Assembly: GCA_046290495.1 (NCBI GenBank)
Contig: JBKAGT010000006.1
Coordinates: forward strand, 50,056-114,055
Reading direction: 5' to 3'
From: Chlorobiota bacterium
GTDB taxonomy: Bacteria > Bacteroidota > Ignavibacteria > Kapaibacteriales > UBA2268
DNA: 64,000 bases
This document shows positions 9,832-33,033 of the stretch, piece by piece. Under the pieces are notes generated by a model that did no database searches, was not told the origin of the DNA, and saw nothing but the letters and a program-made list of their open reading frames with translations. How positions within the stretch are numbered: position 1 is the stretch's first letter; each line of letters opens with the position of its first letter. A program made the translations under genes and the position numbers.

Positions 9832-11277
9832 ATGATAGATACTCACGCACACATAGACACAGAGAGATTTGAAGAAGACTTTGATGAAGTGATCAACAGG
9901 GCAAAAGAATCTGGGGTTGAAAAAGTAATAATACCAGCTATCGAGCCAGCTGCATTTGATAGAATAGTAGAATTAGCAGAAAAGTATGACGAAATATACT
10001 TCGGTATTGGAGTACATCCACACAGTGCAGATAAATATGATGATGAGGTAGGTGCTAAAATATATGAAATAGCTTCCTCTCATCCGAAATGTGTAGCTGT
10101 CGGTGAAATCGGACTTGATTATTTCTATGATAATTTACCTGATAGAAGAGTGCAGCAACATGCTTTCAGAGAACAAATTAAAATAGCAAAGAAAGTTGGG
10201 AAGCCAATAATCGTTCACAATCGGGATTCAGATGAAGATCTTATTACATTGCTTTCTGATGAAAAAGATGAAAATTTGGATGCAGTATTGCACTGTTTCC
10301 CTGACTCAGTAGATTTACTAAAAAATGCCATGGATTTGGGGTTTTATGTATCATTTACTGGTAATATTACGTTTAAGAAGTCTGAACATAAAGAAGTTTT
10401 GGAACAAGTACCTATGGATAGGTTTATGATAGAAACTGATTCGCCATATATGGCACCTGTACCAAATAGAGGTAAAAGAAATGAACCAAGCTTCGTAACT
10501 GAAATAGCAAAAAAAATATCTGAGGTTAAAAATATGAAATATGAAACTATTGTAGAGCAAACAATTTCGAACACAAAGAAGTTCTTCGGAATTGCAACTC
10601 TTCTAATAGCTATGTTGGCTATGTCAACTACAGCTTATTCGCAAGATGAGGAATATTACTACGACGATGAGGAAGACGATTCACCTGTAGAAATTTACGA
10701 GGAAGCACCTTATCCAAAATTCATCGGAATTGGTGGGTTCGTTGGTACTAACACAATCGTGGAAAGCCAAACATTTATTGAAGATGAGAATAAAGAAAGT
10801 GAGAATATCTCTTACGAAGGTATCATTGCTTTTGGTGGAACAGTTACTTTTGGTGGTATAGCTGATTACTTGATTCTTCAAGCTGGGTACTCTTACTCAA
10901 AAAATGAAAAACCAGTAATTACTGCTGGTGCGTTAGAGCCGAATATACACCAAATTATTGAGCTTTCAAGTTTATGGATTCCTAATCCCCACAATAAAAT
11001 TAATGTATATGGTATATTAGGACCAAGTTTTATCATGAATTCAATCAATGGAAATGAAAACTCTCAACTTGGTATTAATACCGGAGTGGGTTTTATTCTT
11101 AATATTCCGTTAGGCAATATTGGTTTGCTAAACTTAGCTGCTGAGTGGAAATTGAATTTTGAATTGACTTCTGTAGAGAGAGAACTTTTAAAAGCTGATA
11201 ATGAATTTGAAACTATAGAGTCGAACAACTTCTACTCTATACCAAGACTGAATCTGATATTCTATCCGAATTTCTAG
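9832..11277 (+). CDS. TatD-family metal-dependent hydrolase fused in frame to a signal-peptide-bearing outer-membrane beta-barrel-like domain
   Basis: ORF-track start 9829 is TTG; the first ATG is 9832 (MIDTHAHID..). Residues about 1-255 are TatD-like and end ..NTKKFFG, where TatD proteins normally stop. The frame continues without any stop into IATLLIAMLAMSTTAYSQ (signal-peptide-like). It then runs through an acidic linker and about 200 aa with alternating-hydrophobic strands ending ..LIFYPNF (terminal Phe). Confidence 0.7.
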   Translation: MIDTHAHIDTERFEEDFDEVINRAKESGVEKVIIPAIEPAAFDRIVELAEKYDEIYFGIGVHPHSADKYDDEVGAKIYEIASSHPKCVAVGEIGLDYFYDNLPDRRVQQHAFREQIKIAKKVGKPIIVHNRDSDEDLITLLSDEKDENLDAVLHCFPDSVDLLKNAMDLGFYVSFTGNITFKKSEHKEVLEQVPMDRFMIETDSPYMAPVPNRGKRNEPSFVTEIAKKISEVKNMKYETIVEQTISNTKKFFGIATLLIAMLAMSTTAYSQDEEYYYDDEEDDSPVEIYEEAPYPKFIGIGGFVGTNTIVESQTFIEDENKESENISYEGIIAFGGTVTFGGIADYLILQAGYSYSKNEKPVITAGALEPNIHQIIELSSLWIPNPHNKINVYGILGPSFIMNSINGNENSQLGINTGVGFILNIPLGNIGLLNLAAEWKLNFELTSVERELLKADNEFETIESNNFYSIPRLNLIFYPNF

Positions 11278-21683: not shown

Positions 21684-22163
21684 TTACAATGAATACCCAA
21701 ACTTGAAACTCACTGGATAAAATGGAATATTTTCCATAGAGTAAGTAGGGCAAATGGCACCACCAATAAACCAATCATCTCCTATTGTATGCCGGAATCC
21801 TAAAGTGAAACTAATTGAAGTTGCTGTATTGAAAAAATCACCTGGGTCATTAGTGTCATAATACTCTTGTACTATTGCTATTCCAATGTCTAGTTTCCTT
21901 TTTAATCCTGAAATGTAATGGAACCCAAGCAAGTAACTAGGCTGTGGCTTAAATAAAACCAAAGTCATTAAAGAAACTCCTAATCTAATTCTTATACTTT
22001 GTTCATTCACAGAGTCATTAGACATTTCAATAAATTTATACTCAAGATTTGGAGATATCAACCCTTTCTGAGGTCCTTGAAATTCATTGTATATGAAGAC
22101 ATTCTTATCATTCTTCGAAAATGAGACACTGTATAAAATCAATAGTAAAAGAAAATATTTCAA
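21684..22163 (-). CDS. small secreted beta-barrel-like protein, family B copy 1
   Basis: 159 aa, TTG start. Signal peptide. C-terminus ..AICPTYSMENIPFYPVSFKFGYSL is paralogous to 23656..24135. Confidence 0.6.
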   Translation of the reverse strand: MKYFLLLLILYSVSFSKNDKNVFIYNEFQGPQKGLISPNLEYKFIEMSNDSVNEQSIRIRLGVSLMTLVLFKPQPSYLLGFHYISGLKRKLDIGIAIVQEYYDTNDPGDFFNTATSISFTLGFRHTIGDDWFIGGAICPTYSMENIPFYPVSFKFGYSL

Positions 22164-22486
22164 AAGCTGTACCCCATACTTAAACCAATGTAATGTGTTA
22201 GGACTCCTTCTTCATATTCTGATTCAATAATAAATGAGGGTGTATATGTTATTCTATAAATAATATTATCAGAATATAATCTATACCCTATTTCAAAACC
22301 AATTGCATTGTAGTCATCTTTTGATGCCACACGCTCAGAACGTGGCAAACTTTTATTTAAAAAATCACGATGGTATCGTTCAAAATAATTTATCCCTAAA
22401 TCTATTCCCTCATCAGTACCTAAGTATTGTATAAAGCCTATAATTGGATAACTATACACTAAAACCACGTCATAAAAACCAAACAT
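22160..22486 (-). CDS. family A copy 1, N-terminally truncated paralog (no signal peptide; possible pseudogene)
   Basis: 108 aa. Aligns only to the C-terminal two thirds of 24123..24632 (DDYNAIGFEIGYRLYSDNIIYRITYTP.. vs DNYDALGFNVGLREYSDSFFFRINYTP..). An in-frame stop lies 39 nt upstream of the ATG, so there is no room for the missing N-terminus. Confidence 0.45.
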   Translation of the reverse strand: MFGFYDVVLVYSYPIIGFIQYLGTDEGIDLGINYFERYHRDFLNKSLPRSERVASKDDYNAIGFEIGYRLYSDNIIYRITYTPSFIIESEYEEGVLTHYIGLSMGYSF

Positions 22487-22565
22487 TGATGAACCGTATT
22501 TAATATGAAGATAATATGAAAATTGTCAAGATTATATATTTAGAAAAACTGTTCAACTATGAATT

Positions 22566-23618
22566 TTACTTTTTAATAAACTTAATGAATTCATCATCTA
22601 TATTGAGAACATAACAACCACTAACAAGGTTTTTTATATCTAACTTATAGTCAGAATTAGGGATATTACTTAATTCTTTAACCAAGTCTCCAGATAGGTT
22701 GTAAAGCTTTATGCTATAGGGTAATTTATTGCTATTAACAATTAAGTATTCTTCAGCTGGGTTTGGGTAAACAATAAAAGAAGCTGACTTAGTATTTTCT
22801 ACTGATGAAATAGGTTCTAATTTGGTTTTGGAAATAACACCAGTATTATACTCACTTACATACATATCATCACCATTTATAATAAATCTAGTAGGCCCAC
22901 TATATGAATCAGTAAAGAATTCTGGGTAAGGGTTTGAATCAGTTAAGTCTAATTTAAATATTAACCCACTATTTGTATTACAGACATATAAATAATTTTC
23001 TCTTATTCTGACCCCATAAACACCTCCTAAGTCAGTTGCTAAGTCTTCAATAATGGGATTTTCTATAGTAATGTCAATTTTCGATATTTTTTTTGCTCCA
23101 TATTCACAAATAAATAAATCATCACCATCTATTGCTAATCCCTCTGGTTCATCGAGACCATAGACAACATCTGATAATACTGGATTCTCTTCGGTAATAT
23201 TTATTTTAGAAATTTTTCCTGCCCTGAATTCACTAATAAATAAATAATTTCCACTATGTGCTAATCCTGAAGGCCCATTTAATCCAGAAACAACTTCAAT
23301 TGAAACAGGGTTATTTGCTGTAATGTCAACCTTAGAAATTCTACCAGCAAAAAATTCAGAAATATAAAGATAATTTCCAATTAGAATTATCCCGCTAGGT
23401 GAATTCAATTCAGAAACAACTTCAATTGGGGTAGGTTCAACCTCAGTAATTTCAATTTTTGATAACTTCTTAGCATCACTTTCAACAAAGTATAAAAAAT
23501 CACCATCGATAGCTAACCCATAGGGTCCCTTCAGAAATTTTAAGATATCTGTTGTTTGAGGTAAAATTACTGTAAAGCTACAGATAAAGATAACAGTAAA
23601 GATTATAAATTTTCTCAT
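22566..23618 (-). CDS. secreted six-bladed beta-propeller protein with T9SS C-terminal sorting domain
   Basis: 350 aa. Signal peptide. About 6 repeats of about 43 aa (..GLA.DGD.LY..E....KISKI.IT..NP..). C-terminus VYPNPAEEYLIV...LYNLSGDLVKEL...LDIKNLVSGCYVLNIDDEFIKFIKK. Confidence 0.8.
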   Translation of the reverse strand: MRKFIIFTVIFICSFTVILPQTTDILKFLKGPYGLAIDGDFLYFVESDAKKLSKIEITEVEPTPIEVVSELNSPSGIILIGNYLYISEFFAGRISKVDITANNPVSIEVVSGLNGPSGLAHSGNYLFISEFRAGKISKINITEENPVLSDVVYGLDEPEGLAIDGDDLFICEYGAKKISKIDITIENPIIEDLATDLGGVYGVRIRENYLYVCNTNSGLIFKLDLTDSNPYPEFFTDSYSGPTRFIINGDDMYVSEYNTGVISKTKLEPISSVENTKSASFIVYPNPAEEYLIVNSNKLPYSIKLYNLSGDLVKELSNIPNSDYKLDIKNLVSGCYVLNIDDEFIKFIKK

Positions 23619-23655
23619 TTCGAGTACCTAAAGATTTAAATGGAAAAAAAATTGC

Positions 23656-24135
23656 CTAGAATGAATAGCCAAATTTAAAACTCACAGGATAAAATGGCTT
23701 ATTTGTAATTCCATAAGTAGGGCATATTGCAAACCCTACAAAGTAATCATCATCAAGATCATGCCTATAGCCAACATTAAAAGATACTGATGTTCCTGTA
23801 TTCATCACATATTTCTCTTGTAAAACTTGATATAATATGTTTACTCCTAGATCTAACTTATGTTCATCACCTCCAATATAGTGAAATCCACCAAGAAAGC
23901 TTGGGTAAAAAGTAAATAATGATAAACCTGTAATCCTAACAGCCCCTCTTAATCTCAAATCACCTTCATTAAGTAGCATACTATCCATCGAAAGTAATTT
24001 CATTTCATAATTCACTGAAAAAAGTGATTCCTGGGGGCCGTAAAATTCTGTGTATAAAAACATATCACTTTCTTCACAAAACGTGATGGAATATGAGAGC
24101 AATATTAGTATAGTTAAGTATTTCAAAAGCCCCAT
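23656..24135 (-). CDS. small secreted beta-barrel-like protein, family B copy 2
   Basis: 159 aa, ATG start, signal peptide. C-terminus ..FAICPTYGITNKPFYPVSFKFGYSF. Alternating hydrophobic strands. Confidence 0.6.
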   Translation of the reverse strand: MGLLKYLTILILLSYSITFCEESDMFLYTEFYGPQESLFSVNYEMKLLSMDSMLLNEGDLRLRGAVRITGLSLFTFYPSFLGGFHYIGGDEHKLDLGVNILYQVLQEKYVMNTGTSVSFNVGYRHDLDDDYFVGFAICPTYGITNKPFYPVSFKFGYSF

Positions 24136-24632
24136 CCAAAACTAAAACTAACAATTCCTCTAAACTCTTTATCTGTCAAATTATATAAAGGGGTATAATT
24201 TATCCTAAAAAAGAATGAATCTGAATATTCTCTTAAACCTACATTAAACCCTAACGCATCATAATTGTCCAATTCATACATTGAGTTAACTTCTACAAAA
24301 TCTCCATAGAAATCACTTTTATACTGACGAAAGTAGCTAGCTCCAAATTCTACACCAAACTCATCACCTATAACATGGTTTATACCTACTATAGGTGAAG
24401 AATACGCTGTACGATATCCTAGTCCAAACATAGATGCACCAAGTGTAAGATATGTTGTCTGAAGTCCTCCAAATAGCTCGAAACTGTTTACATTGTATTC
24501 CAATGTAGGTTTGAGTAGCGGCGAGTAGCCTAATATTTCACAATAAATATTGATAGTCTTTTCTTCAGATTTTAATGATAATGAAGAAAGAATGAAAAAT
24601 ACTAAAACGATATACATTGAAAATCTGTTCAA
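24123..24632 (-). CDS. small secreted beta-barrel-like protein, family A copy 2 (full length)
   Basis: 169 aa, TTG start giving MNRFSMYIVLVFFILSSLSLKS signal peptide. C-terminus ..FRINYTPLYNLTDKEFRGIVSFSFGWGF. Confidence 0.6.
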   Translation of the reverse strand: MNRFSMYIVLVFFILSSLSLKSEEKTINIYCEILGYSPLLKPTLEYNVNSFELFGGLQTTYLTLGASMFGLGYRTAYSSPIVGINHVIGDEFGVEFGASYFRQYKSDFYGDFVEVNSMYELDNYDALGFNVGLREYSDSFFFRINYTPLYNLTDKEFRGIVSFSFGWGF

Positions 24633-24752
24633 GTGTGAGCTGTTTAAATAATTGAATTAAACTAAGTTAAAAAAAAACAACTATTTGCCAAACTTTAATG
24701 ATCAAAAAAAATAAATTTCGGTATTCAAAGTCTTTTATTATATTTGAATATT

Positions 24753-25073
24753 ATGAAAACGATAGCAATCATATTACTAATTCTTGTAAACACCTTTGTG
24801 GCGTTTCCTTGCACCGACGACCATTCGTCTGAACAGGAACACCAAAGTGAGTTAGTAGAAGTTGATTGTTCTGAATTACATACCGAATTCAACGAAAATG
24901 AGGCAGAAACCTGCACTCCTTTTTGTGTATGTAGCTGCTGCCACACTCAGATAGTAGAACTAAGTAAGCAAAACTGTTGCAAGCCAATCGTATACAAACC
25001 AGACTATACTGAAAGACATTTCAATACTTTAGATTATTACAAACAACCAGACCCCTCTCCTCCAAAGGTATAA
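24753..25073 (+). CDS. small Cys-rich secreted protein preceding the heavy-metal RND pump
   Basis: ORF-track start 24744 is TTG; the first ATG is 24753 (MKTIAIILLILVNTFVAFPC). The mature part contains CTPFCVCSCCHTQ and NCCKP clusters (9 Cys in about 85 aa). Confidence 0.6.
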   Translation: MKTIAIILLILVNTFVAFPCTDDHSSEQEHQSELVEVDCSELHTEFNENEAETCTPFCVCSCCHTQIVELSKQNCCKPIVYKPDYTERHFNTLDYYKQPDPSPPKV

Positions 25074-25144
25074 ACTACTACCCAAAATTCGATTAGATGT
25101 AGTTTATAAAATCAAAAAATATTAGAAAATAATAGGTTAGTTCT

Positions 25145-28100
25145 ATGATTAATAGAATAATCGATTTCTCTGTTGAGAATCGTGTAGCTATTGGTGCACT
25201 TACTGTGTTGCTAATAGTAGCTGGTATATGGAGTATGAACAAAGTACCCATAGATGCAGTGCCGGATATAACCAACAACCAAGTTCAGATTATCACCCAA
25301 GCTCCAAATTTAGCGACAGTGGATATAGAGCAATTCGTTACTTACCCCGTGGAGTTAGAAATGTCTAACCTGCCAGGTGTTACCGAAATTCGCTCAGTTT
25401 CCAGATTTGGACTGTCAGTTGTTACGGTTGTGTTCGAAGATGATATGGGTACATATTTGCCCCGTCAGTTAGTTCAAGAAAAATTAGAAAAAGTAAGAGA
25501 TAAGATTCCAGAGCAATTTGGCTCGCCAGATATGGGACCAATTAGTACGGGACTAGGGGAAATATACCAATATAGTTTAGAGGTTGATAGTTCCATGAAA
25601 GGCAAGTACTCGCTAGCTGACTTGAGGAGTTTCCAAGACTGGATAGTGAACAGACAAATGGCTATGGTACCAGGAGTTGTTGAGGTAAATAGTTTTGGAG
25701 GTAAGATAAAGCAATATGAGATTGCAATAGAGCCAGAGAAGCTAAAAGCTATGAATCTTACCATTTCCGATGTATTTGATGCACTAAAGAGGAATAATGA
25801 GAATACAGGTGGTGCTTACATTGTCAAAAACCATTTGGCTAATTATATCCGTGGCGAAGGACTTATCAGAAACACCAAAGATATTGAGCGTATAAAGGTA
25901 GCCACCAAGGAAGGAATTCCGATTATGGTCGGTGATATTGCCATTGTCCAAATAGGTAGTGCAGTTCGCTATGGTGCATTCACAAGAAATGGTGAAGGTG
26001 AAGCAGTTGGTGGTATGGTTATGCTTCTTAAGGGGGCAAACTCCAATGAAGTAATTACAGCCGTAAAAGAAAGAGTAGAACAAATTCAATCATCACTTCC
26101 GAAAGGTATTAGGATTGTTCCATTTTTAGATAGAAGTGAATTAATTAGTGATACTACTAGCACTGTAGCTACTAACTTGATAGAAGGTGGGCTAATAGTG
26201 ATTTTCGTTCTAGTTATCTTCTTGGGTAACTGGCGTGGTGGATTAATAGTAGCTTCTACTATCCTGTTATCGCTGCTTTTTGCATTCATTATGATGTATG
26301 CCTTTGATGTCTGGGCAAACTTAATGAGTTTAGGCGCTATTGACTTCGGTATCATTGTTGATGGTGCAGTGATAATCGTTGAAGGTACGGTATTCGGCAT
26401 TACTCAAAAATTGAAAAAATCAGGCGAGAATATTGGTAAAGATGATATTAAAAATATAGCTAAGAGTTCATCTAAAAAAATGATGAATTCGGCATTCTTT
26501 GGTCAGCTTATTATTCTGATTGTATTTATTCCAATTCTCACTCTAGAGGGTATAGAGGGAAAGATGTTCAAACCGATGGCATTAACATTTGGTTTTGCTA
26601 TGTTGGGTGCTATGTTGCTATGTCTGACTTATGTTCCTATGATGTCAGCGACATTTTTAAAGAGTACGAACAAGGTTAGCATTGGTGATAAGATAGTACA
26701 TTTCCTTGAAAGATTGTACACCAAAGCATTGAGTTTTGTGATTCGCTTCTCTAAAAGCTTTATCATAACTTTAGGTGCATTACTTGGGTTTACAATTTAT
26801 CTGTTCACTAATTTGGGTGGTGAGTTTATTCCTCAGCTTGATGAGGGGGACATTGCTTTTCATATTATGCTGAAGCCTGGCTCCTCGATAGAGGAGTCAG
26901 TTAAAGCCGCAACAGAAGTAGAGAAATTAATAATGACCGAATTCCCAGAAATTGAACAAGCAATGTCAAAATTTGGTGTTTCAGAAGTTCCTACAGACCC
27001 AATGCCAATGGACATTGGTGATTGTATAGTAAAGCTAAAACCTAAAGATGAATGGTCTTCAGCGAGTACTAAAGATGAGTTGATTGCTAAAATGAAGAAA
27101 GTTCTACAAACTATACCAGGTTTGAACTATGAATTTTCTCAGCCAATTGAAATGAGATTCAATGAACTTATATCAGGTGTAAGACAAGACATAGCAATCA
27201 AAATATTTGGCGAAGATTTGGATTTATTGGCAGAGAAAGCTGAAGAAGTGCAGTCACTTTTAGCTGGTATTCAAGGAATAGGTGATATGTCTGTAGAAGC
27301 AACTTCAGGTCTATCACAGATTACAGTTGATTACGATAGAGCTAAATTAGCTCAATACGATATTGATATTTCAGAAGCAAACGAATTACTCAAAACTGCT
27401 TTTGCAGGTGGCAAAGCAGGTGTTATATTCGAAGGGGAAAAACGCTTCGATATGGTAGTTCGGCTGAATAGCGATAATAGAAAAAGCATAGAAGATATAA
27501 AGTATTTATATATAAATACACCTGAAGGGACACAGTTGCCACTTAGTGAAGTTGCTAACGTGCAATATGTGGAAGGCCCTATGCAAATTGGCCGCGACAA
27601 CACTAACAGGAGGGTTTACGTTGGAATAAACGTAAGAGACAGGGACATAGAAACCCTGATGGAAGAGATAAAAGCTAAGCTTAGCTCTGAGTTAGAATTG
27701 CCTGCTGGTTATTACATTACTTATGGTGGTGCTTTCGAGAATTTGGAAAGGGCTATGAGCAAGCTAACTGTTGTTATACCTCTTGTACTATTGCTTATAT
27801 TTATATTGATATACTTTGCATTGAAGTCATTCAAATATACTTCGCTTATCTTTTTAGCAATACCGTTTGCTACTATTGGAGGAGTGTTGTCGCTATGGTT
27901 GAGGGGCTTACCATTTAGTATATCAGCGGGGGTTGGTTTTATAGTGCTTTTTGGTGTTGCCGTTCTCAACGGATTAGTTCTACTTAATGGACTGGAAGAA
28001 CTAAAAGAAGAGCTACCAAATGCAGATATGGATGAGAGAATAAAAAAAGGAACTGTAAGAAGAGTTCGACCGATATTACTAACTGCTCTTACTGATGTTC

Positions 28101-29485
28101 TCGGATTTTTCCCTATGGCAATTAGTATGTCCGCTGGTGCAGAAGTACAAAGACCCTTAGCCACAGTTGTTATCGGTGGACTTTTTACATCTACTTTACT
28201 TACACTTTTCTTATTACCAATACTATACAGATGGCTGGAGACTTATAAGATGAAAAGAATTCCTAATGTTGCTACGGCTATAATAGCTATTTTCATTGTA
28301 CTGATTGGTTCTAATGATAAAGCATTATCACAAGATAAAATAGAGTTAGAGCAGTATGAGCAGATAACATTGCAAGAAGCAACTGAGATAGCTAAGAAAA
28401 ATTACCCTCTGATGAAAATAAGTGATTTGAAGGTAGAAAAGGCTAATAAGCAGAAGAAAAAAGCGATAAACTTTGGAACTACGCAGATATTCACTGGAGC
28501 AGAGGAGAGAGGAAATGGGCTCGATGGAGTAGAGAGTGTTATTGGGGTTAGTCAGAACAACATAGATTTATTCGGTTCTTTTGCTCGAGGAGATTATTAC
28601 TCAAAGAATAGTGAATTAGCTGAAGCAAGCAGAGCATTGACTGAACTAGAGCTTGAGAAGTTAGTAGCTAAAAGATGGGTAAATTTAAACTATGCTAAGA
28701 GCAGATACTATTTCTTCTATTCTCTTGATTCGTTGTTGAGTGGAGTAAATAAATATAATAATTCAAGGTATGAAGCAGAGGCAATATCTGGATTGGAGTA
28801 TTCTGTAACTAAATCAAATTATATAGAAATAAGGAATAAGCTATCCCAATCAAAGGCAGATGTGTTGAGTGCTACTCATTTATTTAATCAACTATTATCC
28901 GATGAACAAACCTACACTACAACAGGGGATAAATTTGAATTAGAGGAGATGACCTCTAATATTAGCTTGGAGCAGCATCCAATGTTGCAGTATCAGCAAA
29001 AACAAGTTGAACTTAGTGAGTCGAATTTAGATATAAATTACAGCAAGCTATACCCAAAGATAAATGGTCAATATAGAGTGCAAAATATACAAGGTCAGTC
29101 AGGATTCTATGCATATCAATTTGGGATTTCTGTACCACTAATATTCAATTCTGTATCTGGAGATATAGGAGCAGCTGAACAAGAAGTTATGATAAGAAAA
29201 GAAATGTATGAAATGCAACGATTGGAGCTGGAAGCCAATTACAAAGCTCAACTCGCTGAGTATGAGAAGTGGCGTGATTCCTATGTGTTCTACCGCTCAG
29301 AGGTTATACCATTGGCAAAAGAAATAAAAGACAAGTCATACTTACGCTACAAAAGTGGCGAGATTGACTATATGGACTTTGTTCAAAGTATAGAGAAAGT
29401 AGTAAAAATGGAAGAAGAGTATTTGAAATCGATGAGCAAATACTTTGAAGCTTATGTCAATATGAAATATTATAATAGCAAATAA
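25145..29485 (+). CDS. CusA/CzcA-family heavy-metal efflux RND permease fused in frame to a TolC-like outer membrane factor domain
   Basis: 1446 aa. Residues about 1-1035 are CzcA-like (12 TM helices, two large periplasmic loops, ending ..LLPILYRWLE). The frame continues with no stop into MKRIPNVATAIIAIFIVLIGSNDKALSQ (signal-peptide-like), then about 400 aa with OMF character (..ITLQEATEIAKKNYPLMK.. and coiled-coil-rich repeats). Confidence 0.85.
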   Translation: MINRIIDFSVENRVAIGALTVLLIVAGIWSMNKVPIDAVPDITNNQVQIITQAPNLATVDIEQFVTYPVELEMSNLPGVTEIRSVSRFGLSVVTVVFEDDMGTYLPRQLVQEKLEKVRDKIPEQFGSPDMGPISTGLGEIYQYSLEVDSSMKGKYSLADLRSFQDWIVNRQMAMVPGVVEVNSFGGKIKQYEIAIEPEKLKAMNLTISDVFDALKRNNENTGGAYIVKNHLANYIRGEGLIRNTKDIERIKVATKEGIPIMVGDIAIVQIGSAVRYGAFTRNGEGEAVGGMVMLLKGANSNEVITAVKERVEQIQSSLPKGIRIVPFLDRSELISDTTSTVATNLIEGGLIVIFVLVIFLGNWRGGLIVASTILLSLLFAFIMMYAFDVWANLMSLGAIDFGIIVDGAVIIVEGTVFGITQKLKKSGENIGKDDIKNIAKSSSKKMMNSAFFGQLIILIVFIPILTLEGIEGKMFKPMALTFGFAMLGAMLLCLTYVPMMSATFLKSTNKVSIGDKIVHFLERLYTKALSFVIRFSKSFIITLGALLGFTIYLFTNLGGEFIPQLDEGDIAFHIMLKPGSSIEESVKAATEVEKLIMTEFPEIEQAMSKFGVSEVPTDPMPMDIGDCIVKLKPKDEWSSASTKDELIAKMKKVLQTIPGLNYEFSQPIEMRFNELISGVRQDIAIKIFGEDLDLLAEKAEEVQSLLAGIQGIGDMSVEATSGLSQITVDYDRAKLAQYDIDISEANELLKTAFAGGKAGVIFEGEKRFDMVVRLNSDNRKSIEDIKYLYINTPEGTQLPLSEVANVQYVEGPMQIGRDNTNRRVYVGINVRDRDIETLMEEIKAKLSSELELPAGYYITYGGAFENLERAMSKLTVVIPLVLLLIFILIYFALKSFKYTSLIFLAIPFATIGGVLSLWLRGLPFSISAGVGFIVLFGVAVLNGLVLLNGLEELKEELPNADMDERIKKGTVRRVRPILLTALTDVLGFFPMAISMSAGAEVQRPLATVVIGGLFTSTLLTLFLLPILYRWLETYKMKRIPNVATAIIAIFIVLIGSNDKALSQDKIELEQYEQITLQEATEIAKKNYPLMKISDLKVEKANKQKKKAINFGTTQIFTGAEERGNGLDGVESVIGVSQNNIDLFGSFARGDYYSKNSELAEASRALTELELEKLVAKRWVNLNYAKSRYYFFYSLDSLLSGVNKYNNSRYEAEAISGLEYSVTKSNYIEIRNKLSQSKADVLSATHLFNQLLSDEQTYTTTGDKFELEEMTSNISLEQHPMLQYQQKQVELSESNLDINYSKLYPKINGQYRVQNIQGQSGFYAYQFGISVPLIFNSVSGDIGAAEQEVMIRKEMYEMQRLELEANYKAQLAEYEKWRDSYVFYRSEVIPLAKEIKDKSYLRYKSGEIDYMDFVQSIEKVVKMEEEYLKSMSKYFEAYVNMKYYNSK

Positions 29486-30729
29486 TGAGAATAGAAATGA
29501 AATTAATAATAACAATACTAATATCGATATTTATGATTGCCTGTGGTAATGATGCAGGTCATAATCATGAAGAAGAGCATGGACATGATGAACATAATGC
29601 TCATGAAAGTGAAAGTGGTCATGATGACCATGGTGAGCATGAAGACCACGATGAGCATGGTGAAGAAGGAGTGGTAGAAATAAATACAGATGTATATAAA
29701 ACTATGGGAATAGTTTTGGATAGCTTAGCTACCAGGAATATGAGTGAAGCTGTCTATGCAACTGGTCACTTGAAAGTACCACCAAACAACGAAGCTACAG
29801 TAACGGCTATGGTAGGTGCTAATATCAAGTCAATTAGAGTGATAGAAGGCGATAAGGTTCGCAAAGGCCAAACATTACTTACTATGGAGCATCCTAACTT
29901 AATTGAAATGCAAACTGAATATGTAGAATTGTCAAGCCAATTAGAATATCTAAAAAATGAATACGAAAGAGAGGAGAAGCTCTATAATTCTGATGCTAGT
30001 TCTGGAAAATCATTTCAGAAAGCTAAATCGGAATATCTTACAACAAAGGCAAGATACTACGGACAATTGAAAAAGTTGAGAATGCTAAATATAGATACCG
30101 ATAAGGTATTGGATGGTGAGTTTTCCGATGTTATTTCTATCCGAAGTCCTATCGGTGGGTTCGTTAATAAAATATTAGCTAAGACTGGACAGTATATAAA
30201 TCCCAATGATGAGATAATACATATAGTAGATAACCATCATGTGCATGTTCATTTTATGGTGTTTGAAAAAGATGCTATAAAGATAAAGAAAGGGCAACAA
30301 GTAAGATTCACTACAGATTATGTGGAGGGCAAAGAGTTTGAGGCAGAAGTATATTCTGTGGGAAAAAGCTTTGAAGAAGATCCAAAAGCAGTGCATATTC
30401 ATGCAGAAATGTCAGACAATAAGTATGATTTGATTCCAGGTCTTTATGTAAAAGGTCAAATCTTAATTGATGAGCATAATGTAAAGGCACTACCAGAATC
30501 AGCTATAGTGAGTGACAAGGGTAAAGACTATATCTTTGTTTACTCAGGTAGTGATGAGGAGCATACTAAGTTTGAGTTGGTAGAAATTAAGACTGGGTTG
30601 AGAAAGGATGACTGGGTAGAAGTTAAGGCAATTCTGAGCGATGAAGACATAGATAAAATAGTATATAACAAAGCATACACTTTACAATCCGAAAAAGATA
30701 AAGGAGCTGGTGGTCACCATCACCACTAA
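29485..30729 (+). CDS. RND efflux periplasmic adaptor (CzcB/CusB-like) with His-rich metal-binding termini
   Basis: TAATG overlap with the upstream gene. Lipobox MIAC. N-terminal HNHEEEHGHDEHNAHESESGHDDHGEHEDHDEHGEEG, C-terminal GAGGHHHH. Beta-barrel and lipoyl-like adaptor core. Confidence 0.85.
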   Translation: MRIEMKLIITILISIFMIACGNDAGHNHEEEHGHDEHNAHESESGHDDHGEHEDHDEHGEEGVVEINTDVYKTMGIVLDSLATRNMSEAVYATGHLKVPPNNEATVTAMVGANIKSIRVIEGDKVRKGQTLLTMEHPNLIEMQTEYVELSSQLEYLKNEYEREEKLYNSDASSGKSFQKAKSEYLTTKARYYGQLKKLRMLNIDTDKVLDGEFSDVISIRSPIGGFVNKILAKTGQYINPNDEIIHIVDNHHVHVHFMVFEKDAIKIKKGQQVRFTTDYVEGKEFEAEVYSVGKSFEEDPKAVHIHAEMSDNKYDLIPGLYVKGQILIDEHNVKALPESAIVSDKGKDYIFVYSGSDEEHTKFELVEIKTGLRKDDWVEVKAILSDEDIDKIVYNKAYTLQSEKDKGAGGHHHH

Positions 30730-30797: not shown

Positions 30798-32321
30798 TTA
30801 TTCTGTGTTTTCTTCAGCTTCAGTAGTTACTAACTTTGATTGTACTTTGTTGTTAACTGGTATAGAGAATGCGAATGTAGAACCTTCATTCTTTTTGCTC
30901 TTTACCCAGACATACCCGTCATGAGCTTCTACCATTTTCTTTACAATCCAAAGTCCCAAACCAGTTGCAGACTCACCGCCAGTTGGCTTGCTACTCAGAG
31001 TTGCACCTTTTTGGAATGTACGCTTAATATCCTCTTCTGAAAGGCCTTGACCCGTATCGCTAACACTGAATATCACATGTTTTTTATCTTTATCATAGTC
31101 AGTTTCTACTAACACTGAACCACCCTTTTCAGTGTATTTGATAGCATTTGAAATTAGGTTATCCATTACTTCATCTATTCTCAGGACATCTAAGTTTATT
31201 TCTGGCAAATCTTCGCCTAGTACTGATTCGTAAGTAAGTTTCTTGTTTCTAGCATTGAAAGTATTTCTCATGAATACGTCTTGTGCTATATCATTCATAT
31301 CTACTAAGTCATATTCCAAATTGAGCCCAGTGCCTTCTAGAGCCATAATTTTACTTATTTCAGAAGAAAGCTTCAGTATTCTGCTAGAGCTTTCTGCAAT
31401 ATCTTTCATTATATCATCGAAGTCATTGGCAGTACTGTCATAGTTGGTTAGTAGGTCAACTAACCCTTTAATTACTGATGCTGGATTTTTAATGTCATGT
31501 ACTATAACTGAGAATAACTCTTCTTTTTGTTTTTGAAGGTCTTCTAGTTCTTTCTTTGATTTATCAGTTTTATTCACTGTTTCTTGTAGTTCTTTGTTCT
31601 GAACCATTAGCTTTCTACTTTGCGATTGCATTTTATCTATCTGCAGTCTCAGAGCTTTTATTTCTTTTCGCAGGTCAGCATTTTCCTGCTCTATTGTTTT
31701 TTCTTCAGCACTCATGTTGCCCTCTGTTTGCTTACTTTTTAATTTATTTTTATTTCTTGGTCTGTTTTTTAAATAGATTAAAACGAAAATTGCGATAAGT
31801 GATATCAACACTATTAAAGCAATGTCAGCTAAATAAGAGACAAAGCCATTTTCATTTTCTAATTCATCTAACTTCTTCTGTAAATCTTGATTTAAAGATT
31901 CTTGATTTTCTATTTTAGTTATTAGTTTAGCTAACTCATTATCTACTATGAAACTAATCTCATCATCTTTTGCTACCCATGTGCCATCTTCACTTAGTGC
32001 ACTTATTTTAAATGTGTACTCTGCTTCCGGTAGATTAGCGTATCTAACTACTAAATTATCTACTAAATTGACAGAAGTATCTTGATTCATTATCAACATA
32101 GTTCTGTATCTGACAGTCTTTGTTTCTACTTTTGGTGATACAGTATATTCGAACACAATAGAATCTGAATCAGATATTACTATCTTATCCTTGAAAGTAA
32201 TCTGTGCAGGTTCGCCATTTACTTGCGCGTAATCAATTGTAGCTTTATAATCTTGAGCAAGCAATGCATTGCTACCAAAAATCAAAAACAATACGATGAA
32301 TAAATTAATTATTCTATTCAT
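30798..32321 (-). CDS. sensor histidine kinase (periplasmic Y_Y_Y-like domain, single TM, HisKA+HATPase_c); no response regulator nearby
   Basis: H-box FSVIVHDIKNPASVI; N, G1 and G2 boxes (NLISNAIKYTEKGG; DTGQGLSEED; GLGLWIVKKM). Start taken at the internal ATG (MNRIINLFIVLF.. signal peptide). The ORF-track start 32381 would overlap the upstream gene by 68 nt. Confidence 0.8.
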   Translation of the reverse strand: MNRIINLFIVLFLIFGSNALLAQDYKATIDYAQVNGEPAQITFKDKIVISDSDSIVFEYTVSPKVETKTVRYRTMLIMNQDTSVNLVDNLVVRYANLPEAEYTFKISALSEDGTWVAKDDEISFIVDNELAKLITKIENQESLNQDLQKKLDELENENGFVSYLADIALIVLISLIAIFVLIYLKNRPRNKNKLKSKQTEGNMSAEEKTIEQENADLRKEIKALRLQIDKMQSQSRKLMVQNKELQETVNKTDKSKKELEDLQKQKEELFSVIVHDIKNPASVIKGLVDLLTNYDSTANDFDDIMKDIAESSSRILKLSSEISKIMALEGTGLNLEYDLVDMNDIAQDVFMRNTFNARNKKLTYESVLGEDLPEINLDVLRIDEVMDNLISNAIKYTEKGGSVLVETDYDKDKKHVIFSVSDTGQGLSEEDIKRTFQKGATLSSKPTGGESATGLGLWIVKKMVEAHDGYVWVKSKKNEGSTFAFSIPVNNKVQSKLVTTEAEENTE

Positions 32322-33033
32322 ATTTGTAGGCATTTTTAGCATTGACTGTTGCTCTATTTCTTTTTTTAAATGAGTTTTCATTTATCTTCTTTTCTAATAT
32401 TCTCTTTACATCGAAAAAAGTTTTAAAATTATAATGTGGTAAACTATTCTCGTTGCAATGTGTAGCTAAGTACTTCTTAGCAAAAATTATATCGCAATGT
32501 TCGGCGGCACAAAAATCAGAATATCCATCTCCAATATATATTTTGAGAGAACTCTCTGTACTTGTGTTTAGAACAAAATTTCTTTTGCAATTGGCCGAAT
32601 AGCAATTGCATGATTCTGATGCAAAAGTATATTCGGGCTGCAAATGACTTTCTTTTTCAATTAACTTATTACTGACAACAGGTAGATCCAGTCCATTTTG
32701 TTCTAGAATCTGATTAATGTAAAAGTCGAAACCGTCACTTACTACATATAAATCCAATTTGTTGTCTTTGCAGTACTCAACAAAGCTTACAAAATACGGG
32801 TCAATATCAAATGCTTTTGCCTGTTCTCGTAAGTCACTTAGAGTAGTGCTATTAGGTAAACTCTTACAAAGTTTGTGCCAATATTTATATATGCTTAGTT
32901 TGCCTTCACGAAACTCTTGGTTTAGCTCTTCAAAGTGTCCTACTCTTTCGAACAACTTGTTCCCAACATCTTTGAGAGTTATTGTGCCATCGAAATCACA
33001 AAATACCTTAACATCTGTATATTTAATAGACAT
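32314..33033 (-). CDS. HAD-family phosphatase, MtnX-like (2-hydroxy-3-keto-5-methylthiopentenyl-1-phosphate phosphatase family)
   Basis: 239 aa. FCDFDGTIT, DGFDFYINQILE, Cys cluster SCNCYSANCKRN, IYIGDGYSDFCAAEHCDIIFAKKYL. These align along the full length with B. subtilis MtnX as recalled from memory. Confidence 0.65.
   Translation of the reverse strand: MSIKYTDVKVFCDFDGTITLKDVGNKLFERVGHFEELNQEFREGKLSIYKYWHKLCKSLPNSTTLSDLREQAKAFDIDPYFVSFVEYCKDNKLDLYVVSDGFDFYINQILEQNGLDLPVVSNKLIEKESHLQPEYTFASESCNCYSANCKRNFVLNTSTESSLKIYIGDGYSDFCAAEHCDIIFAKKYLATHCNENSLPHYNFKTFFDVKRILEKKINENSFKKRNRATVNAKNAYKYE

Follow-up and report, generated by a model that had tools for sequence, protein, structure and literature searches.

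A DUF6660 gene ahead of a czc efflux operon in a Chlorobiota bacterium: a candidate CutF-like metal-sensing arrest peptide

The metal response of czc efflux operons in Bacteroidota is puzzling, because usually no regulator gene lies alongside them. This question is raised by a 64,000-nucleotide (nt) stretch of contig JBKAGT010000006.1 from a Chlorobiota bacterium (assembly GCA_046290495.1; the whole stretch is hereafter the window), in which a small cysteine-rich open reading frame (ORF) stands directly before czcA, the gene of a heavy-metal pump of the resistance-nodulation-division (RND) type. What does such a gene do for the pump that follows it? A first-pass annotation of the DNA suggested that the product is a periplasmic metal chaperone or a metal-sensing accessory. 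We found that the ORF belongs to the Pfam family DUF6660, and its architecture suggests, with slightly better than even probability, that the peptide is a CutF-like, cis-acting and co-translationally exported metal-sensing arrest peptide that controls the translation of czcA. The sensing accessory of the earlier description is close to this reading; the chaperone is not, as no fold is predicted and both the motifs and the length match a sensor of the CutF type.

The DUF6660 family, its operon and its motifs

The ORF runs on the plus strand from the ATG at 24753 to the stop codon at 25071-25073 and encodes a predicted protein of 106 amino acids (aa), MKTIAIILLILVNTFVAFPCTDDHSSEQEHQSELVEVDCSELHTEFNENEAETCTPFCVCSCCHTQIVELSKQNCCKPIVYKPDYTERHFNTLDYYKQPDPSPPKV. 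Its coordinates, its orientation on the strand of czcA and its count of nine Cys (C20, C39, C54, C58, C60, C62, C63, C75 and C76) are as first described; residues 54-66 read CTPFCVCSCCHTQ and residues 74-78 NCCKP, and at least nine Cys in 106 aa have a binomial P of ~4.5e-9 at the Cys fraction of 0.5% found in the long ORFs of the window. The ATG of czcA lies at 25145, which leaves the adjacency intact and corrects the distance, 71 nt from the DUF6660 stop codon instead of 70 bp. The protein matches PF20365 (DUF6660) over residues 1-72 (30.8 bits versus a gathering cut-off of 27, E 4.3e-7) and is 100% identical to an NCBI protein named 'DUF6660 family protein [Chlorobiota bacterium]'. An exhaustive hidden Markov model search returned 309 matching cluster representatives at the 50% identity level, and we count at least 564 DUF6660 loci in species-representative genomes, essentially all of them in Bacteroidota in the broad sense. 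The protein had been described as possibly novel, which the search of domain databases contradicts by placing it in this catalogued family; DUF6660 and PF20365 are not mentioned in the literature searched, and the family is unstudied under its own name. Family members of 130-170 aa were considered as 'fused' forms with extra domains and rejected, as their upstream starts are mis-called. Purifying selection marks the DUF6660 ORF as a real gene: the ratio of nonsynonymous to synonymous substitution rates (dN/dS) is 0.084 against the nearest relative, which is 79% identical (L002), and has a median of 0.18 over 267 family pairs.

Conservation upstream of czcA homologs had been proposed as a check, and the gene order is indeed kept throughout Bacteroidota. 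Among the 77 loci with enough downstream DNA, 74 have a CzcA-type RND gene directly downstream on the same strand, at a median gap of 98 nt and with the adaptor gene next, and a more distant relative (L001) keeps the DUF6660-czcA order despite different upstream genes. The exceptions are L021 (10001-12918), where DUF6660 precedes an exported heavy-metal-associated (HMA) protein and a His-rich P-type ATPase, L049 (1626-4174), where it precedes a TonB-dependent receptor, and L027, with only ~700 nt of contig past the DUF6660 gene. This tight linkage to metal efflux, with two exceptions that are still metal-related, bears out the claim of a metal-linked partner gene of the pump. Genes that also recur nearby encode exported HMA proteins (18 loci), Fur-family regulators (9) and DUF3703 (7), and across the family loci no regulator is consistently adjacent to the DUF6660-czc operon. 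The neighbours in L021 and L049 also mirror the range reported for CutF-like genes in Proteobacteria.

Upon aligning the family, we observe that all of its invariant elements are present in the window protein, namely P-C-x-D, [DE]-x-C-[ST]-P-F-C-x-C-x-C-C and a C-terminal Pro-Pro (PP; positions of all features are given in Table 1). Only six Cys are invariant, C20 and the series C54-x3-C58-x-C60-x-C62-C63, with conservation of 100% at C20, C54, C58, C60 and C63 and 99% at C62, accompanied by P19 (97%), D22 (99%) and D/E52 (93%). C39 and the NCCKP pair are lineage-specific and missing in a 52%-identical relative, and the emphasis earlier placed on the NCCKP cluster is not sustained by the family alignment. 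The N-terminal uncharged run is exactly 16 residues long in 97 of 153 members (median 15-residue hydropathy 2.55) and has K/R before it and ~3.6 D/E in the next 15 residues, a charge pattern that predicts export of the C-terminal part (N-in, C-out). The linker that follows is 22-34 residues long in the family and contains 13.5% D, 11.9% H, 11.3% E and ~4% K+R. Beyond the Cys cluster most columns are only 10-25% conserved and the length is nearly fixed: the first Pro of PP lies a median of 41 residues after the last Cys (interquartile range 41-42, range 39-47, n = 150), and 40 residues after it in the window. The PP is 98-99% conserved within the C-terminal consensus [IV]-W-[QHR]-P-P-[KQR], and in 140 of 150 members only 2-4 residues separate it from the stop codon (K-V in the window).

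The peptide is likely to be exported and thiol-rich, as judged from these sequence features. The description of the protein as 'secreted' is retained with respect to export, which the 16-residue hydrophobic N-terminus makes likely, and not with respect to processing, as there is no canonical site for signal peptidase I or II. A lipobox has a small residue (G, A or S) at position -1 before the Cys; the window protein and 97% of the family have Pro there, and a lipoprotein was rejected. We also rejected a second transmembrane segment after the Cys cluster, where hydropathy attains 1.6 in only 2.6% of members. The Cys totals per member show no preference for even numbers (six in 44 members, seven in 50, eight in 34 and nine in 19), and because odd counts are as frequent as even ones they point to free thiolates, and so to metal ligation, rather than to a disulfide scaffold. 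This bears on one alternative, in which the peptide is a small structural membrane subunit of the pump, like AcrZ, with its Cys in disulfides and no metal sensing. Such a subunit would account for the single confident N-terminal helix, the even number (six) of invariant core Cys and the constant co-occurrence with an RND gene, but we consider it highly improbable, since total Cys counts are odd as often as even, invariant Asp residues flank the Cys, the linker is rich in D, H and E, the helix is poorly conserved in sequence except for its hydrophobicity, and the gene also precedes a P-type ATPase and a TonB receptor where there is no RND gene.

Comparison with CutF and other small metal-linked proteins

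CutF of Rhodobacter capsulatus is the 118-aa product of the first gene of cutFOG and has a Sec signal and a central CXXXC (Ozturk et al. 2021, 2023, 2025). Its C-terminus reads PEPEGPPPRL, and the ~45 residues from the Cys motif to the Pro motif have been noted as possibly critical. CutF is exported co-translationally, copper on the exposed motif lengthens ribosome stalling at the prolines, and the ribosome stalled on cutF melts a stem-loop shielding the start of cutO; the same cutF-cutO stem-loop also affects mRNA stability. Initially proposed as a chaperone, CutF works in cis only and is degraded after export. A rule set for CutF-like proteins (fewer than 150 aa, a signal peptide, PP in the last 15 residues and a same-strand gene downstream; Ozturk et al. 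2023) recovered 5,334 proteins, 19-40% of them from Bacteroidota, with ACR_tran (CusA/CzcA) among the frequent downstream neighbours. Against these rules, the window protein has 106 aa and P103-P104 followed by K-V and the stop codon, with czcA on the same strand after the 71-nt spacer. Its N-terminus consists of M-K and a 16-residue hydrophobic helix with N-in/C-out charges, without a clear cleavage site; C54-T-P-F-C58 forms a CXXXC, and the distance from Cys to PP is 40.

The likeness to CutF extends to the position as first small gene of a metal-resistance operon, the probable Sec-type signal, the CXXXC, the Pro motif at the stop codon, a spacing of ~41-45 residues between the last two, a short intergenic spacer with a predicted stem-loop, the absence of a predicted fold and the low conservation outside the motifs. 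The C-terminus of the window protein is also Pro-rich with charged neighbours, as is PEPEGPPPRL. The differences are equally clear. CutF is assigned to DUF2946 and has two Cys, whereas DUF6660 has six invariant ones (C20 and CxxxCxCxCC), a signal that closes with an invariant P-C-x-D, and no evident site for a signal peptidase. The target of CutF is a multicopper oxidase exported by Tat, whereas that of DUF6660 is a Czc RND pump of the divalent type; in addition, the host phylum of DUF6660 is without Shine-Dalgarno sequences, and the stem in the window misses the downstream start. Upon searching relatives with the profile of PF11162 (DUF2946), 5 of 116 gave hits, all of them weak (best E 0.051), and two DUF6660 members carry the UniRef name 'DUF2946 domain-containing protein'.

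From this architecture we infer export, metal binding, stalling and coupling to czcA, which could be connected as follows. A promoter directly before the ATG would yield a nearly leaderless mRNA, and the strongly hydrophobic N-terminus would direct the nascent chain to the Sec translocon. The P-C-x-D end, the acidic and His-rich linker and then the CXXXCxCxCC cluster would emerge on the periplasmic side, and with the ribosome at Pro-Pro the Cys cluster, ~41 residues behind the peptidyl-transferase centre, would have reached the outer opening of the translocon. Binding of a thiophilic or borderline divalent metal at this point (the pump type suggests Zn, Cd or Co) would abolish the pull of translocation and lengthen the Pro-Pro pause. 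The ribosome paused on the stop-codon region would unwind the RNA stem and free the czcA initiation region in most family members, so that the output would be the amount of CzcA, with or without its fused outer-membrane factor (OMF), and CzcB that is translated. A spacer of fixed length without fixed sequence is what a ruler made of ribosome tunnel plus translocon predicts, and the PP lies 2-4 codons from the stop codon, so that a ribosome paused there covers it.

Other nascent chains offer partial parallels. SecM, MifM and VemP are likewise exported, and their C-terminal arrest, which is relieved by the pull of translocation, opens a downstream stem-loop, but they monitor the secretion machinery and not metal. 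The family C-terminus [FY]..x.I-W-Q-P-P resembles the synthetic arrest motif FXXYXIWPP(P), where the window has D-P-S-P-P instead. CruR of Bordetella pertussis and CopL of Xanthomonas are Cys-containing, Pro-ended upstream peptides with cis-only, post-transcriptional control of the next metal gene, and the DUF6660 gene of L049 likewise precedes a TonB-dependent receptor; CruR differs in that it represses through Rho-dependent termination, acts independently of a signal and has a 162-nt spacer. CzcI of Cupriavidus metallidurans differs in that its C-terminus has no proline motif.

We next consider the predicted fold, which bears on the chaperone. With an alignment of 116 sequences, AlphaFold2 gives a mean predicted local distance difference test score (pLDDT) of 66, in which helix 2-17 alone is confident (pLDDT 84-93) and the remainder lies at ~57-65. 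A sequence search of the PDB with the family profile found nothing below E 0.04. The absence of CusF signatures noted earlier is confirmed by a profile search, in which the protein has no match to PF11604 (the CusF-type chaperone family) at E<=1, and no beta-barrel is predicted. CusF, the Cu/Ag chaperone of CusCBA, and CopG resemble DUF6660 as small periplasmic proteins linked genetically to metal RND pumps, and the CxCC of CopG, which holds a tetranuclear Cu cluster, is contained within the DUF6660 CxCxCC. Both are folded, CusF as an OB-like barrel and CopG with a thioredoxin-like fold, unlike the window protein, which has no Pfam match to either and no predicted fold. The suggestion of a periplasmic chaperone is not upheld by AlphaFold, which predicts no fold beyond the N-terminal helix, and by this prediction the DUF6660 peptide does not look like a free folded periplasmic metal chaperone.

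A wider form of this idea is that the mature peptide acts in trans, in or near the inner membrane, where it would bind Zn, Cd, Co or Cu and either pass the metal to CzcA/CzcB or buffer it, with W-Q-P-P-K as a docking site. The six invariant Cys, D22, D/E52 and the D/H/E-rich linker would suit such an accessory, as would the lack of an even-number Cys preference, which argues for thiolates over structural disulfides, the tight operon linkage and the purifying selection over the whole ORF. As 18 of these loci also encode exported HMA proteins with CxxC, the organisms make use of thiol chemistry in the periplasm, and CopG provides a precedent for a periplasmic CxCC that holds a metal cluster. We nevertheless regard a trans-acting accessory as rather unlikely. 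No fold is predicted, the 40 residues past the cluster keep their length and not their sequence, which would be odd for a docking segment or a folded domain, and the PP at 2-4 codons from the stop codon and the stop-codon stem that covaries with the czcA leader are left unexplained; CutF, too, was once proposed as a chaperone and then shown to be cis-acting and degraded. The earlier description of a possibly novel thiol-based metal-binding partner of the pump therefore stands as far as a metal-linked, thiol-based and conserved gene is concerned, while its novelty does not, given DUF6660, and its mode of action is probably wrong. Annotating or expressing the ORF as a metal chaperone is unwarranted before the existence of a stable protein is checked.

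RNA structure between DUF6660 and czcA

The spacers of the family are unusually structured, with a median folding z-score of -3.6 and 70% of them below -2. In the closing stem, the region around the stop codon is paired with a stretch whose end lies, at the median, 11 nt ahead of the czcA ATG. For 48 of 51 loci the start of the 5' arm falls between -2 and 0 of the stop codon, and in most family members the 3' arm overlaps positions -20 to -3 of czcA. This stem covaries: the 5' arms vary by lineage (e.g. TAATGA, TAATCGT, TAACCTT and TAATTCAGTT) and complementarity is kept, the longest perfect complement being 7.6 nt within a locus versus 5.2 nt with the leaders of other loci (P = 4.6e-12). Leaving out the loci with the common TAATGA arm does not abolish this excess (P = 1.9e-6). 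When a ribosome is masked at PP, the predicted accessibility of czcA positions -18 to +6 rises from 0.47 to 0.58 (P = 8e-9), with a gain of at least 0.1 in 60% of loci.

In the window, positions 25069-25078 pair with 25099-25108, and this stem alone has -8.5 kcal/mol. L001 has the long-range stem typical of the family; the corresponding stem in the window, 25073-25082 with 25135-25142, was rejected at -1.1 versus -8.5 kcal/mol for the local hairpin. Searches of Rfam returned nothing credible on the spacer of the window (E<=10) or on those of seven related loci (gathering threshold).

Several observations count against a CutF-like mechanism. The window protein has no match to PF11162 (DUF2946) at E<=1, and because it gives no such hit its proposed kinship to CutF is one of architecture. 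Its C-terminus, K-Q-P-D-P-S-P-P-K-V, is without the I-W that the family has before Q-P-P. The fixed length past the cluster could reflect a fold that AlphaFold misses without metal, and purifying selection over the whole ORF and a set of six invariant Cys, compared with two in CutF, could also be compatible with a stable protein that binds metal. The predicted family-wide gain in accessibility is modest. In the window, the 3' arm of the hairpin stops 36 nt short of the czcA ATG, an unusual distance for the family, and masking a stalled ribosome leaves the predicted accessibility of the czcA start unchanged (0.42 to 0.44); the nearest relative, L002, behaves in the same way. As the stem of the window stops short of the czcA start, the coupling there must differ from the family norm or be weaker. 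To our knowledge, Bacteroidota make no use of Shine-Dalgarno sequences, so that the 'shielding of a ribosome-binding site' needs a looser reading.

These points lead to a second alternative, in which the sensor is the same and its read-out is of the CruR/TnaC type, with pausing at PP controlling termination or mRNA stability in the spacer and not the accessibility of the start. For the window, this would mean that the ribosome opens the hairpin at the stop codon and so alters Rho access, RNase access or read-through into czcA. The hairpins of the window and of L002, which hold the stop codon without touching the czcA start, agree with such a read-out, and so do the two or three extra internal hairpins of many spacers, the Rho-dependent termination used by the CutF-like CruR and the effect of the cutF-cutO stem-loop on mRNA stability. 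Against this, a consensus scan (sigma-70-type/terminator) of 24300-25400 found no terminator-like site, that is, no G+C-rich stem followed by a T run, and most 3' arms in the family overlap positions -20 to -3 of czcA, a better fit to translational control. As an account of the system we consider this read-out quite improbable; by analogy to CruR, the link from pause to pump in the lineage of the window could nonetheless run through mRNA stability or termination.

In its broadest form, the CutF-like reading would make the DUF6660 peptides sensors of divalent metals (Zn, Cd or Co) that act by arrest, with a composite site formed by the signal-anchor Cys/Asp and the five-Cys cluster at the translocon exit, a 41-residue ruler and a stop-codon stem, and would make them the main switch of czc induction across Bacteroidota, operating without Shine-Dalgarno sequences or an adjacent transcription factor. 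We give this broader proposal a little less than an even chance. The Pfam family and the CutF-like class are known; what would be new is the extension of the CutF principle to the divalent-metal RND pumps of Bacteroidota. If DUF6660 is a nascent-chain sensor of the CutF type, one gene of 100 codons would explain czc induction in several hundred species-level genomes, and the principle would reach beyond copper and oxidases to include divalent metals and efflux pumps. The family would also allow 'transmembrane' ribosome stalling to be examined in a second, independent setting, with another metal class, another target and a phylum without Shine-Dalgarno sequences.

Inside the closing stem, the spacers of Flavobacterium (~10320-10430 in each locus) have two or three additional internal hairpins, in which compensatory changes occur. 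Loci with such hairpins are L010, L017-L023, L026, L039-L043, L047, L051, L053-L055, L062, L066, L071, L073, L083 and L084. The Flavobacterium spacers end in a conserved ATTTCTCAyGTCATTATA box that has no Rfam match, and they may be more than a simple shielding stem.

Pump, promoter and neighbouring genes

Table 1. Positions of the DUF6660-czc features in the window. MFE, minimum free energy.
Feature	Position	Strand	Basis
Bacteroidota-type -7 promoter box TATATTTG (TAnnTTTG)	24739..24746	+	ends 6 nt before ATG
DUF6660 ORF, small Cys-rich CutF-like peptide, probably exported, 106 aa	24753..25073	+	PF20365 match, NCBI identity, conservation, dN/dS
Putative hydrophobic export signal or signal anchor, M-K + 16 residues (residues 1-18)	24753..24806	+	AlphaFold helix 2-17, family hydropathy
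P-C-T-D, invariant P-C-x-D at outer end of signal helix (residues 19-22)	24807..24818	+	family conservation
Variable linker, acidic and His-rich (residues 23-51)	24819..24905	+	family linker composition
E-T-C-T-P-F-C-V-C-S-C-C, CXXXC + CxCC motif (residues 52-63)	24906..24941	+	family conservation
Spacer, variable in sequence, nearly fixed in length, with the non-conserved NCCKP (residues 64-102)	24942..25058	+	family spacing, pLDDT ~57-61
P-D-P-S-P-P-K-V, Pro-rich C-terminus with P103-P104, candidate ribosome-stalling motif (residues 99-106)	25047..25070	+	family conservation, CutF parallel
Predicted hairpin, 10-bp stem TATAAACTAC / GTAGTTTATA, 20-nt loop, DUF6660 stop codon in 5' arm	25069..25108	+	MFE structure, -8.5 kcal/mol
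Predicted small hairpin, 7-bp stem, holds czcA AUG 25145-25147	25140..25158	+	MFE structure of 25060-25160
1446-aa fusion of a CzcA-type heavy-metal RND permease with a TolC-like outer-membrane factor, proposed regulated target	25145..29485	+	TIGR00914, ACR_tran, OEP
CzcB-type periplasmic adaptor, His/Asp/Glu-rich N-terminal stretch, C-terminal HHHH	29485..30729	+	profile matches, composition

The CzcA protein scores 1166 bits against TIGR00914, with ACR_tran at residues 5-1031 and OEP at residues 1273-1443. The motif DFGX3DGAX3VEN in the fourth transmembrane segment (TM4) is the signature of the divalent-cation HME1/HME2 pumps of the heavy-metal efflux (HME-RND) class. The pump of the window carries DFGIIVDGAVIIVEG at residue 400 as its version of this motif; DFGX3DGAX3VE[ASGT], whose last residue is not N, is found in 65 of 67 related loci. 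Apart from this residue the TM4 motif agrees with the HME1/HME2 signature. The RND protein and the TolC-like factor are fused in ~48 of 66 related Bacteroidota loci and encoded by separate genes in 18, and the working mode of an inner-membrane pump and an outer-membrane channel in a single polypeptide is not obvious. The CzcB adaptor (29485-30729) carries a dense His/Asp/Glu tract at residues ~22-62, GNDAGHNHEEEHGHDEHNAHESESGHDDHGEHEDHDEHGEEG, and only ~12% of related loci have at least six His in the matching region.

The sequence TAnnTTTG is the -7 box of Bacteroides promoters. Upon examining the upstream regions, we find an exact TAnnTTTG starting at -20 to -11 from the start codon of DUF6660 in 45 of 79 loci, compared with 3 of 79 before czcA. 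The box in the window ends 6 nt before the ATG, which suggests a leaderless or near-leaderless mRNA, and its presence before DUF6660 and rarity before czcA indicate that the small ORF is the first of the transcript and has hardly any leader, or none. Over the 45 nt before the ATG, the window (24700-24752) and L002 (7950-8000) barely differ, farther upstream the two diverge, and this conserved segment, which contains the -7 box as well as a TTTC 19 nt upstream of the box, fits the promoter of a leaderless transcript.

Two further groups of genes lie next to the operon. A histidine kinase with a Y_Y_Y domain (30798-32381, minus strand) converges on its end; it was considered as a part of the system and rejected, being kept only in the closest relatives (L002-L004) and not family-wide. 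Before the operon, a duplicated two-gene module of small proteins with aromatic C-termini (…FKFGYSF/L and …SFGWGF) occupies 21684-24632 on the minus strand. The four module ORFs have no Pfam match; those at 23656-24135 and 21684-22163 are 48% identical, those at 24123-24632 and 22160-22486 are 33% identical, and a protein that has a type IX secretion sorting domain is encoded between the two copies (22566-23618).

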